A stretch of DNA of 64,000 bases from IMG/VR virus record IMGVR_UViG_3300031952_000005, positions 41,465-105,464 of that record. The stretch is one strand, 5' to 3'. The position numbers were made by a program, and so were the translations under genes. Below the pieces are notes generated by a model. The model made no database searches and was not told where the DNA came from. It worked only from the letters and a program-made list of their open reading frames with translations. This DNA is from a virus. Each line of letters starts with the position of its first letter. Within the stretch, counting starts at the first letter, position 1. Positions 41,332-59,150 of this stretch are shown here, in pieces.

Positions 41332-41997
41332 TTATGGTATAGGATTAGTTGTTAATATACTATTTAAACTTGAAGATGGTGACTGACCACATTTGTATAT
41401 AGAAGATATGTGAAGTACATATTCTTCATCTTGTACTATATTTGGACTTGTTATATTTAAAGTATTTGGTGTACCATCTACTTCAAGAGTTGATTTTGAA
41501 TAAATAGGATAACTAAAAGTAGTATCTGCAAGTGTGTAAACATTAATACTATATCCTGTAGGAGATTGTATATCAGGAACACTTGATTTACTCCAAGAAA
41601 TATCAGCTGATGTAGTTCCAATTGTATCAACAGTTAAATTTTCTGGAGCTAATAACACACATGCAATAAGACTTCCACTATTTGTGACTTCTATAATCTT
41701 GTTTCTCATGTCTGCTATTGTTACCCATAAATTTGTTATAGAGTCACCTATATTATTTACACTAGTTAACCATCTTGGTAATGCACTCATCGGGGATGAA
41801 GTATTCATTAACTGTGGTAAGTTAGATAAGTTAGGTATCTGTGCAGTTATGCCATTAAATAATGAAGTAGTAGTTCCTATTGCAGATGTTAAATTACAAT
41901 AGTTTCTTTCAAATGTAAAAAATGCATTTTGTATTAGTACTTCTTGTCCAGGTGTACCACTTGATGCACATTGAGATATAATGTAAATATTATCCAT
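41332..41997 (-). CDS. Structural protein with C-terminal FN3-like domain
   Basis: LAPENLTVDTIGTTSADISW...GYSINVY...EEYVLHI. ATG at 41997 avoids a 60-bp overlap with the upstream gene. Confidence 0.6.
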   Translation of the reverse strand: MDNIYIISQCASSGTPGQEVLIQNAFFTFERNYCNLTSAIGTTTSLFNGITAQIPNLSNLPQLMNTSSPMSALPRWLTSVNNIGDSITNLWVTIADMRNKIIEVTNSGSLIACVLLAPENLTVDTIGTTSADISWSKSSVPDIQSPTGYSINVYTLADTTFSYPIYSKSTLEVDGTPNTLNITSPNIVQDEEYVLHISSIYKCGQSPSSSLNSILTTNPIP

Positions 41998-46493: not shown

Positions 46494-47510
46494 TTACACG
46501 TTCCAATAATGTTCTGTTGTCAATGTGATTTCTGATAAGATCTCATCATTCAATGGGTTCTTTAAGAACATAACAACATCAGATGGATTCTTACCTAAAC
46601 TAGTTCCTGACTTGATATGATAAATAAATCCATCACCTCTTGTAGAAATTAATTTATAAAAGTTTGCATCTTTTACAAGTGCTCTTAATTTTAATGTCTC
46701 CATGTCTAATGTAGCAATATCTAAGAACTTACCTGCAGTTTTACGTTTGTCTTTGTCAACTGTATCACCATTAATATAACTATCCATGTTATCATACATT
46801 ACATCAAGTGGTGTAGATTTTTTATACTGAGTAGAATTAGGATCAACTACTTTACATACATAAAATAATTTGTTACTATTTTTCTCAAATAATTTTTGCA
46901 ATTCAGATAATGCTCTGTTTCTCAGTTTTTTAACTTCAGTTTTAACAGATGCAGTTTCTTCATATTTATCTAAGTAAAACTTAAATGGAACTGATGCACT
47001 TCTTGCAGCTTCTAATGACTTTGCAACTATACTAAATCCACCTGCTTCTATACCACGTAGTTTAATCAAATCATATGGATCACCTACAGGATCTAAATAA
47101 ACAGGTTCATTACCAAATCGCATGGTAATCTTTCCCCAAAAATCATCATTATCTGGTCTAAGTAATTTACACTTGTTCCAAAACTCTACATCATCAACAT
47201 TTAAAACATTTGCTGCCAATTCTCTTTCTAATTGTGCAACAGTTTTTCTAATGTCTTTAATTGCAGCAGCTGCATCATCAGGATTCATAAGTTTTATTTC
47301 AGGTGCAAATTCATTTAAACCTGATACATATCTTCTAATACCATTGTACTCAAGACATGCTAATGATTCTTCATGAAACACTCCTTCAAAGAGTGCCATC
47401 TGATACTTTTCTAATCCCATGTTTGCCATCTCGTTATCAACGTATGGTCTAATTGTCAATGAACTGTTTCTTTTTAACGACTGGTGTTTGTCGATTACTG
47501 TTACTTCCAT
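46494..47510 (-). CDS. Conserved crAss-like protein downstream of MCP (338 aa)
   Basis: Long ORF; DDFW...YLDP..DPYD pattern; synteny. Confidence 0.6.
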   Translation of the reverse strand: MEVTVIDKHQSLKRNSSLTIRPYVDNEMANMGLEKYQMALFEGVFHEESLACLEYNGIRRYVSGLNEFAPEIKLMNPDDAAAAIKDIRKTVAQLERELAANVLNVDDVEFWNKCKLLRPDNDDFWGKITMRFGNEPVYLDPVGDPYDLIKLRGIEAGGFSIVAKSLEAARSASVPFKFYLDKYEETASVKTEVKKLRNRALSELQKLFEKNSNKLFYVCKVVDPNSTQYKKSTPLDVMYDNMDSYINGDTVDKDKRKTAGKFLDIATLDMETLKLRALVKDANFYKLISTRGDGFIYHIKSGTSLGKNPSDVVMFLKNPLNDEILSEITLTTEHYWNV

Positions 47511-47556
47511 GTTTGTTTTTTAATTTAATTGACTGCGTTCTTCTTTCTCTGTTTTT

Positions 47557-47697
47557 TGTAACTACTAGTTTAAAGCTCCTAAACCACGTCAAGGTTGTTA
47601 CATCTTAGGAGTGCCTGTATTGCTACAGGTTGTTGTTGACTAATCAACATCGGGGAGAGAGGTTATCTCTTCAACTTGCCATACTATGTACAAGTTA
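47557..47697 (-). ncRNA. Structured intergenic RNA: four hairpins followed by an HDV-like double-pseudoknot candidate
   Basis: Stems AACUUG/CAAGUU, AGAGA/UCUCU, GUUGA-UUAG-UCAAC, CCUGUA-GCAA-UACAGG, then CUCCUAA/UUAGGAG, UGUAAC/GUUACA and ACC/GGU. Confidence 0.5.
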
Positions 47698-47705
47698 TAG
47701 CAAAT

Positions 47706-47831
47706 CTAACACTTTTTATACTTACTTGGTGAAGCACCTGCAAGTTTTTGTGTTTTTGGACCAGATTGAGGAGAAGTAGGTTTCTTTACTACAATCTTGT
47801 TACTCATTGCTGCTTTATTTTTTCCTGTCAT
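47706..47831 (-). CDS. Small basic protein (41 aa), not in ORF track
   Basis: MTGKNKAAMSNKIVVKKPTSPQSGPKTQKLAGASPSKYKKC. Confidence 0.55.
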   Translation of the reverse strand: MTGKNKAAMSNKIVVKKPTSPQSGPKTQKLAGASPSKYKKC

Positions 47832-47856
47832 GATTTCTTATTATTAGTTGTACTTA

Positions 47857-47879
47857 CCTGGAGATATTACTTCTCCAGG
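47857..47879 (-). promoter_or_regulatory. Stem-loop directly 3' of MCP (mRNA stabiliser or weak terminator)
   Basis: CCTGGAGA-N7-TCTCCAGG with no U-tract. Confidence 0.5.
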
Positions 47880-47894
47880 AGTACATTATTAATA

Positions 47895-49547
47895 CTAAAA
47901 TGATCCACCAGTAATAGGGTTTCTCATAACAATTTTCAACACTTTAGTTGGATCTTTTACCCAGATACTTGGCATAGTTTGAGTCATAAATACTCTATAA
48001 CCATTAAAGTTTCCAGAAGATGCAAATCCTTGAGATCTACCCATATAGTCCATAGTACCATTTTGGTAGAACCACTTCATCTCGCTATCCCATTTAAGTT
48101 TCAACAAAAAGATGTTATCATTTGTATTGTCAGTAATATCAAATACAATGAAGTTGTAAGATGATAATGGATATCCATCAATGATAGGATTTTCAATATC
48201 ATTTGTATGAACGTTGTCAAATGCAGGATTCAATACAAATTTCACATTTGCCAAGAAAGGAATTGTGTAAGATGTAAATGCAAATCCAAAGTTTAAGTCC
48301 ATTGCGTTATTACCAGTAATAGCACCAACACCAGACTTATCCATGTTTGCAACAAGTCCATTGTAAGAAGAACCTAAGTTTGCACTAAACGCTTCTTTTT
48401 TGATAGACTCATTAACCATTCTCATACCAGCCATACCCGTTTGTACAATGATTTGACGACCTGGATCTGGTCCTTTGAATTCTACTTTACCATTGTAGAA
48501 GTTGAAGATTTCTGATCTGAACAATTCTAAGTTGAAAGTAGACTTGTTGTAGATTCTCTTGAATGAGTTATCTAACTGAGACCAAAGTCCTACTGATAAT
48601 CTAATATCATCTGGACCATCTTGTTTGATTCTACCACCTTGTCCCCACATCAAGTAAGTCTCAATGTCATTTGCAACTTTTGATAAGTGAGCTGCTTCAA
48701 GGTTTGTAACAAATGAACGAGATAGATTACCATTATCATAAGATTTTTTAATCCAATCTTTACCCATTGTTTTTACCATGTCATCAATCTTAGTGATAGA
48801 TGGATCAAGGTTTTTGTCAAATGATCTCCAGATTTCAGTTACAGGAACTGTACCATCTGCATTAAGACCACCTTTCATCATCATGTCTGCACGAGATGAG
48901 ATAGAATAATGTACGTGAGCCTCAGCACCTCCAACAAAGTTGTAGTATTCTCTGAAACCATTCTGTAATTCTCCGATGTCAGAAAATTTTTCACCATATT
49001 CTCCACGAGCAGAACCTTTTCTGAAGAATTTAGTACCTGGTTTAAGGTATTTTTTGTCTAACGTAGCAGTGTTATTGTTGTTTACCAACTGTACAGTGTA
49101 GATGAAACCATCTCCTGTAGGAAGAATATCTTCTGAAGGTACAACATACAATTCAAGACCTTTGTATTTGTCATAAGTGATGATATCACCAGAACCAAAT
49201 ATACGTCTGTTGATTTTAATTTTGAACAATACTCCATCAGCTCCTAGAGCAGTTTGAGTAGGTTCTACATCTTCAACAATGTAAGGAAGATCTTGTACGA
49301 TTGGTGTTTGCCATTTGTACTCTCCACGAGCATTGTCTACCATTATGGTGTTTTTACCACCAAAAGATGCCATCTGATAAAGAGGCATTTCTACCTTTTG
49401 CGTCATTGCCCATAAGTCAACAGGTCCTAAATCCATAGGTTCTGAAGTCTTTAGCATATTTTGCAAATGGTATGAGTCTACATGCGAACTTACCTTGTAA
49501 GTTGTGTCACGCAAGAAGAGACCATTGTTTAAAACAGGTGTTGCCAT
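47895..49547 (-). CDS. Major capsid protein (crAss-like, HK97 fold)
   Basis: 550 aa after portal and scaffold; high-expression codon bias; C-terminal IWVKDPTKVLKI motif. Confidence 0.88.
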   Translation of the reverse strand: MATPVLNNGLFLRDTTYKVSSHVDSYHLQNMLKTSEPMDLGPVDLWAMTQKVEMPLYQMASFGGKNTIMVDNARGEYKWQTPIVQDLPYIVEDVEPTQTALGADGVLFKIKINRRIFGSGDIITYDKYKGLELYVVPSEDILPTGDGFIYTVQLVNNNNTATLDKKYLKPGTKFFRKGSARGEYGEKFSDIGELQNGFREYYNFVGGAEAHVHYSISSRADMMMKGGLNADGTVPVTEIWRSFDKNLDPSITKIDDMVKTMGKDWIKKSYDNGNLSRSFVTNLEAAHLSKVANDIETYLMWGQGGRIKQDGPDDIRLSVGLWSQLDNSFKRIYNKSTFNLELFRSEIFNFYNGKVEFKGPDPGRQIIVQTGMAGMRMVNESIKKEAFSANLGSSYNGLVANMDKSGVGAITGNNAMDLNFGFAFTSYTIPFLANVKFVLNPAFDNVHTNDIENPIIDGYPLSSYNFIVFDITDNTNDNIFLLKLKWDSEMKWFYQNGTMDYMGRSQGFASSGNFNGYRVFMTQTMPSIWVKDPTKVLKIVMRNPITGGSF

Positions 49548-58567: not shown

Positions 58568-58633
58568 TTCTTCTTCTAATGTTTGTTATTTCATACATAA
58601 ATGTATGATTTTGTACAATATACTGTACATTTG

Positions 58634-59070
58634 TGGAGGTGAGGGGAGTCGAACCCCTGTCCAAATCATGCTTCAATAATACAATTTATACAGCTTTTAG
58701 GTAATCAACTTAGTTGACGACTCCACCACTCTGTTTAATCTAACAGAGAAATCTTAAATCTTTCTTACAGCGCTCCTAAAGAATTACCTCATGGTCTGTC
58801 ATCTGTTAAGATTCAGGGTTTCTGAGAAAGATTAATTTGCGACTACTATAAACCCTTTTTCGTCAGTTAATTTAGGCTGCTATACCAGTGTAAGACTCCT
58901 CATTTAATAATGAGAATACTTTGTTCATGTTAGCTTCTACTTGTGCGTTGTCTCCTTGAGATACTACACTTAAATTTGCATTGCCATTTAATTAAATTCA
59001 CCTTAGTTTACAGTTATCTCTCTGGCTGATTGTACTACTTACTAATAACCTGTCAAAACCAGTCACCCCC
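58634..59070 (-). ncRNA. ssrA: tmRNA (437 nt)
   Basis: 5' GGGGGUGACUGGUUUUGACAGG and 3' GGACAGGGGUUCGACUCCCCUCACCUCCA; acceptor stem with G3-U70; helix-2 pairing AGUAGUACAAU/AUUGUAUUAUU; tag ORF 58872-58985 ending IAA-stop. Confidence 0.95.
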
Positions 59071-59078
59071 AGTATTAG

Positions 59079-59150
59079 TAGCGTGTTGTGGATTCGAACC
59101 ACCCCGTAGAGTTTATGAGACTCCAATGCAACCAGTTACACCTTCACGCA
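59079..59150 (-). tRNA. tRNA with CAU anticodon (Met/fMet-like)
   Basis: Anticodon arm GGAGU-CUCAUAA-ACUCU; T loop UUCGAAU; acceptor GCGUG/CACGC. Confidence 0.85.

Follow-up and report, generated by a model that had tools for sequence, protein, structure and literature searches.

The spacer between the major capsid protein gene and the next gene of a crAss-like lake phage raises the question of whether the RNA transcribed from it cuts itself. The window analysed here is a stretch of 64,000 nt (positions 41,465 to 105,464 of virus record IMGVR_UViG_3300031952_000005), and all positions given without a contig name are those of the window. A sequence-only reading of this DNA had proposed an HDV-ribozyme-like nested double pseudoknot with an inverted P1.1 pair in the spacer, taken to be a variant self-cleaving or structural RNA that processes the capsid operon transcript. 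The element is best explained, judging from its sequence and that of its relatives, as a self-cleaving ribozyme of minimal HDV-like (theta-like) architecture that belongs to a reversed-core class, and it most likely self-cleaves 5' of C47611, with a probability of roughly 0.7. The positions of the element, its parts and its neighbours are listed in Table 1.

Table 1 Location of the element in the window, its parts and neighbouring features, and of reversed-core copies in two other viral contigs
Feature	Position	Strand	Remarks
Major capsid protein gene, upstream cistron	47895..49547	-	phrog_11589, E = 1e-30; crAss001 gp32, PDB 7QOF, E = 3e-5
Small basic 41-aa ORF (MTGKNKAAMSNKIVVKK...)	47706..47831	-	between capsid gene and hairpins
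HP1, HP2 and HP3	47634..47706	-	HP1 47673-47706, HP2 47656-47670, HP3 47634-47649; hairpin array upstream of the knot
HP4	47614..47629	-	6-bp stem and GCAA loop; ends 2 nt before the predicted cut site
Whole HDV-like double pseudoknot, 55 nt	47557..47611	-	C47611 to A47557; helix order as in HDV
P1 5' strand CUCCUAA	47605..47611	-	C47611 is nucleotide 1
P2 5' strand UGUAAC	47597..47602	-	pairs with 47562-47557
P3 ACC/GGU and L3	47583..47595	-	47595-47593 pairs with 47585-47583, closing L3 UUGACGU (47592-47586)
P1 3' strand UUAGGAG	47576..47582	-	last base G37; pairs with 47611-47605
P1.1 3' side	47574..47575	-	C47575 can pair with G47590; U47574 opposite U47591 (U-U)
J4/2 CUAGUA	47563..47568	-	first base, C47568, corresponds to C75 and is putatively catalytic
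P2 3' strand GUUACA	47557..47562	-	
338-aa gene, downstream	46494..47510	-	ATG 46 nt past the predicted ribozyme, A/G-rich leader between
HDV-like sites in L444	1171-1226, 6168-6228, 7306-7367	-	
Reversed-core copies in L372	1269-1328, 3468-3529, 4618-4678	+	

A direct read-out of the minus strand recovered every element that the sequence-only reading had listed, in the helix order of HDV. Laid out in the manner of the theta ribozymes, the element reads CUCCUAA/GA/UGUAACA/ACC/U/UG/ACGU/GGU/UUAGGAG/CU/UUAAA/CUAGU/AGUUACA, in which J1/2 is GA and a linker, UUAAA, stands at the position of P4. The window copy has no P4, as had been claimed, and relatives carry either a P4 of 3-4 bp with a GNRA loop or longer hairpins. 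The P2 strand originally read as UGUAACA forms six Watson-Crick pairs and has an A-A mismatch at the seventh position; A47596 is unpaired in the window and paired in some relatives. The nested MFE fold of the region recovers P1 only. The features of HDV-like ribozymes found were the nested double pseudoknot, the P1.1 pair and a J4/2 that opens with C and continues N-R-A (C47568-U-A-G), and the feature missing was the G1-U37 (G1-Y37) pair at the cut site, which is C1-G37 here and in essentially all relatives. The C1-G first pair noted earlier was borne out in 46 of 49 distinct sequences, the remaining three, with U-G, being read as alignment register shifts. Cleavage is predicted between A47612 and C47611.

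The frequency of such an arrangement was assessed with a loose HDV descriptor (a P3 of 3 bp, L3 YNNNYGY, a perfect P1 of 6-7 bp, any Watson-Crick pair as P1.1, 5 bp or more in P2, and a C close to P2'). Exactly one match, the site in the window, was found on both strands of the 105,464-bp genome, and the mean of 60 Markov-shuffled genomes was 0.12 matches per genome, so that the single sequence is only suggestive. The model R1 scored 81.8 bits on the 55 nt of the element, its sole match in the window. No HDV family was matched in Rfam 15 at the gathering threshold or at E <= 10, the only matches in 47400-47800 being chance ones to snoRNA and HCV models, and no match to the locus came up when 50,697 phage records were searched with blastn. 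Wide pattern scans of metagenomes and genomes yielded, among the matches listed, nearly all chance matches in GC-rich coding DNA, and the motif matches in a Flavobacterium MAG (L241) and a giant-virus MAG (L442) were rejected as such. Relatives were present in 18 RNA runs in small shares only, as Logan contigs, which cannot show RNA ends; when these contigs were placed on the window, the spacer was hardly covered. One short X2 RNA piece seems to span about 47551-47611, and it says nothing on RNA ends because a core common to several strains forms such a unitig anyway.

The evidence that carries the fold comes from relatives. A search with the 338-aa protein encoded downstream led to 48 viral loci, and pattern scans added more. 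At loci of the nearer homologues (at least about 66% identity) the knot lies 35-100 nt before the ATG; loci of the more distant homologues have a short spacer without the knot. By structural parsing, the fold is kept in at least about 50 distinct relatives. Covariation, which had been suggested as a check, was found in P1, P2 and P3. In a plain, unfitted MAFFT alignment of 25 members lacking P4, 85.9% of the P1/P2/P3 cells are paired, against 73% in shuffles, and double-sided changes number 62, against 15.6; the observed values were reached by none of 500 shuffles. Pairing in this alignment falls to 31-46% when the partner columns are slid by 1-3, and compensatory change is seen in five of the seven pairs of P1 and all seven of P2. 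In a second alignment, of 49 distinct sequences on the P1+P3 model, P1 is 95.6% paired with compensatory change in 6/7 pairs, and P3 is 100% paired, with A-U replaced by G-C in seven sequences. A third alignment (A3), of the P4-bearing subset, was left out of the counts because it was misaligned at P3. P2 is represented by at least 20 unrelated helices, each with its complement (examples of one strand are UGUAAC, AGCAACU, GCUGAC, AAGAAU, GGCAAU, AGAAAGU and AGUGAGG). The G-U pairs of the helices fit the gene strand only, which fixes the strand of the element as the gene strand. Conservation and covariation in the relatives together put the fold far beyond chance.

Around these changing helices the core hardly varies. 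C1, G37, a pyrimidine at position 2 with a purine at position 36, P3 as RCC/GGY, and U39 are fixed or nearly fixed. L3 is kept as UNNNYGU (first base U/C, second U; positions 1, 6 and 7 nearly invariant), and the start of J4/2 is A-C-N-R-R in every member. The sequences of P1 and P2 differ wholly between contexts, while L3 UNNNYGU and the A-C of J4/2 stay. Set against HDV, the fixed core positions are those that match its active site, and a catalytic role of C47568 is inferred from this kind of comparison. The P1.1 pair, between the base after P1' and position 3 of L3, is G:C in 48/48 aligned sequences, U:A in another 11 distinct sequences and A:U in a single one, all of them with C1-G37. Since the pair types vary yet stay complementary, the exchange of L3 G and post-P1' C that had been described as a compensatory swap is a real, covarying pair, never mismatched in relatives with valid P1 and P2. 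At the second position of P1.1 a U faces a U throughout. None of about 50 distinct sequences has a G at position -1; such a base would pair with C38, making P1 longer and breaking P1.1, and the authors of the L1TcRz study describe a G at -1 as harmful in these same two ways (PMC3185411).

The spacer from the capsid gene to the 338-aa gene measures 384 nt and runs, from the capsid side, through a strong hairpin, the basic 41-aa ORF, four hairpins, the knot and the 46-nt A/G-rich leader. The region upstream of the knot (47612-47894) folds with z = -3.9. Every relative of the clade has HP4, at a distance of 2-5 nt on the upstream side of C1, with a stem that differs in sequence. The hairpin at the capsid stop lies at 47850-47884 in the window and is without a U run; a U-run intrinsic terminator follows the capsid hairpin in L063, L074 and L106, and also in L008 and L100. 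In relatives this hairpin is sometimes a full terminator, which suggests that transcripts get as far as the ribozyme only by read-through. The 41-aa ORF is kept in the close relatives L001, L006, L063 and L104, is internally duplicated in some (L008, L100) and had no family match in PDB, Pfam or PHROG; the 338-aa protein likewise had no PHROG, Pfam or PDB match. Close relatives L001, L063, L074 and L106 have an extra ORF of ~80 aa between the capsid gene and the small ORF. A scan of the gene strand for sigma-70 promoters and terminators gave nothing relevant, and a Bacteroidota-type -7 motif, TAnnTTTG, at 47701-47708 was set aside as the motif is no more frequent in the window than expected (110 occurrences, with 110 expected). 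A pyrimidine-rich sequence, CCACCUCCUC, is kept between the capsid stop and the ribozyme in L009, L010, L012, L014, L015, L022, L052, L053 and L117; its counterpart in the window is CCUCUCUCCCC, at about 47650-47662 and partly within HP2. We take CCACCUCCUC to resemble the 3' end of 16S rRNA.

The window element follows a hairpin array and not a tRNA, as the sequence-only reading had stated. Theta-type proximity to a tRNA, with the cut within about 5 nt of the tRNA 3' end, is absent here, the nearest tRNA of the window being at 59078-59150. A tmRNA lies 7 nt downstream of tRNA-Met (58631-59150, minus strand; Rfam 71.3 bits; tag DEKGFIVVAN), and a generic HDV descriptor found no ribozyme at the 3' end of this tmRNA. 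The contrast with tRNA-linked theta ribozymes thus holds for the window but is not absolute, as theta-type proximity is present in the relative L441. There the knot (L441:10438-10498, minus strand) takes up the whole of a 59-nt gap between members of a 20-tRNA array; one base separates C1 from the CCA of tRNA-Asn, and tRNA-Thr begins 3 nt past P2'.

The same core occurs well away from capsid genes. Phage L444 has a canonical theta ribozyme directly after the discriminator base of tRNA-Met and, in addition, three reversed-core copies between genes, each preceded by a conserved module consisting of GGUUGAAAUUCCC, a hairpin and AAAAU. A related contig, L372, has the same three copies; model R1 matches two of those on L444 and all three on L372, and one copy in this group is divergent (L3 UUGACGA, J4/2 CAGA). 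A tRNA with a CUA anticodon (amber suppressor-like) was found by ARAGORN in L444 and L410. Four further copies are present in a 617,453-bp viral record identified through protein crov509 as Cafeteria roenbergensis virus (CroV), whose host is a marine flagellate. These copies, near crov509 (L368, L374 and two in L382), each lie within a repeated intergenic module and have an insert of roughly 50 nt where P4 would be, with covariation between the strands of P2 (AGUGAGG/CCUUACU, UGUAAGG/CCUUACA and UGUAAAGG/CCUUUACA). A subclass with L3 UUUACGU, A38 (P1.1 U:A) and a P4 hairpin includes L461, L464, L480, L484, L490, L508, L519, L525 and L543, and L491 has A:U; the carriers of the U:A subclass are viral contigs with lengths of about 100-280 kb, and a single metagenome supplied most of them.

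Compared with the canonical HDV and CPEB3 ribozymes, the element has the double pseudoknot and the J4/2 cytosine in common and differs in their G1-U37 wobble, C:G P1.1 and long P4. The L3 of CPEB3, UUCACGU, is one base off that of the window. The closest match in architecture is with the theta ribozymes, minimal HDV-like ribozymes of Caudoviricetes that cleave experimentally (Kienbeck et al. 2024, PMC10879173) and whose catalytic C is the first position of J4/2. An example given in the supplement of that paper reads GGUAAC/G/AGAGAAU/ACC/U/CC/ACGC/GGU/GUUACU/GG/AUUAGA/CUAA/AUUCUUA. The window element resembles the theta examples given there in helix order, P3 ACC/GGU, L3 U-NN-ACGU, a linker of 5-7 nt in place of P4 and J4/2 CUAA(N), and its segment lengths (7/2/7/3/7/3/7/2/5/5/7) match those of the examples in PMC10879173; both kinds reside in phages, and the two occur together in phage L444. 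The difference lies around the cut site, where the theta examples have G1-R2, Y37 and a C:G P1.1, and the reversed core has C1-Y2, R36-G37 and a P1.1 of G:C, U:A or A:U over U-U. Among the theta hits listed in PMC10879173, all start with G and have a P1' that ends in T or C, the bases in the window being C and G, and the core string is absent from the theta supplement. The settings also differ, theta ribozymes adjoining tRNA 3' ends in gut phages and the window copy lying behind a hairpin array, within the capsid operon of a phage from a lake.

A reversed cut-site pair has a precedent in L1TcRz of the Trypanosoma cruzi L1Tc element, in which P1 is CCCUGGC/GCCAGGG (from primer sequences), C+1 pairs with G+37, and cleavage at +1 occurs in vitro (PMC3185411). 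Its authors noted that the GC pairs of P1 have another orientation, and P1.1 another composition, than in HDV and R2, and regarded the classic descriptor used in searches as too strict (PMC4035085). The C+1/G+37 pair and a short P1.1 of a single pair are common to L1TcRz and the phage element. L1TcRz is a GC-rich RNA of 77 nt with a P4, located at the 5' end of a eukaryotic retrotransposon where it also serves as a promoter, and no sequence relation to the phage core is detectable; with its phage capsid operon context and only the orientation of the cut-site pair in common, the element does not belong to the L1TcRz/Pr77 group. A weak P1.1 also has a parallel. In PMC13635239, a phage HDV ribozyme with a solved structure combines a weak P1.1 (U:A and U:U) with fast cleavage, and the P1.1 of the two ribozymes described, one of them phage-derived, is one Watson-Crick pair over U:U or C:U; these ribozymes differ from the window element in having P4 and crystal structures. 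A literature search returned no paper on the core string, on ribozymes in crAss-like phages or on HDV-like ribozymes in CroV. The HDV-like fold itself is known, and the reversed-core class is, on present sequence comparisons, without an Rfam family, an entry in the theta supplement or a searchable paper.

Several readings of the element have to be weighed against self-cleavage. A chance arrangement around a simple hairpin P1 in a hairpin-rich spacer would be in keeping with the rate of 0.12 loose-descriptor matches per genome and with a nested MFE fold that has P1 alone, but P2 and P3 covary as strongly as P1 and the fold is kept in about 50 distinct relatives, which come from unrelated viruses. 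Chance is ruled out by the covariation in both alignments and is given next to no weight. The features that speak against cleavage are the C1-G37 Watson-Crick pair in place of the G1-U37 wobble, the U-U at the second P1.1 position in all cases, and the lack of an Rfam HDV match. In HDV, the G1-U37 wobble is thought to help bind the catalytic metal, and HDV-like ribozymes of retrotransposons have been reported to aid translation initiation. An RNA that has kept the HDV fold without cleaving and is structural in the 5' leader of the 338-aa gene, as a block to 5' nucleases or a helper in ribosome loading, the latter in a host whose translation does without Shine-Dalgarno sequences, would accord with the missing wobble, with that role of the retrotransposon ribozymes, and with the position of the knot in the crAss-like clade, always 35-60 nt upstream of the same start codon. 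Such a structural knot would not need the exact nucleotides of the HDV active site, yet these are fixed while the helices change; the element also occurs without a following start codon, in the tRNA array and the CroV intergenic modules, and L1TcRz is a C1-G37 core able to cleave. A non-cleaving fold is, on balance, unlikely.

A pseudoknot that responds to a ligand or protein, riboswitch-like or autoregulatory, and controls read-through or translation downstream is less probable still. A conserved structured intergenic RNA just 5' of a gene would suit such a role, but there is no alternative expression platform and no terminator behind the element, and the same core stands beside unrelated genes, tRNAs and giant-virus genes, which makes a gene-specific regulator unlikely. 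Processing of the capsid-operon transcript, with self-cleavage as its predicted step, is the best-supported reading, and the recurrence of the same variant in many phages and in CroV makes it most likely that the late message is cut in two.

If the element cleaves, the 55-nt double pseudoknot would fold as the late transcript emerges, and C47568 in J4/2 would act, by homology, as general acid while the chain breaks between A47612 and C47611. On the upstream piece, with the capsid gene and the small ORF, the 3' end would consist of the four hairpins and a terminal 2',3'-cyclic phosphate, expected to protect the capsid mRNA from 3' exonucleases. The downstream piece would have a 5'-OH end and the compact knot in front of the unstructured A-rich leader and the 338-aa gene, and the knot may also help in translating this downstream ORF. 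Stability and translation of the capsid message and of the downstream message would thereby be uncoupled.

We lean towards regarding the C1 form as a distinct and widespread HDV-like class that would cleave without the G-U wobble metal site and would punctuate mRNA behind the capsid gene, tRNA arrays and repeated intergenic modules in viruses from crAss-like lake phages to CroV. If it is active, reversed pairs next to the scissile phosphate are tolerated by the HDV fold in nature, and on a large scale, a point relevant to the debate on what the G-U wobble does in metal binding. Searches with motifs in which G is required at +1 would miss the C1 class and count too few HDV-like ribozymes. For the phage, the locus would be a concrete case in which a ribozyme, and not RNase III or RNase E, is predicted to separate a highly expressed capsid message from the genes downstream. 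Punctuation of transcripts is proposed to be nuclease-independent, and the copies in CroV extend this idea to viruses of eukaryotes.
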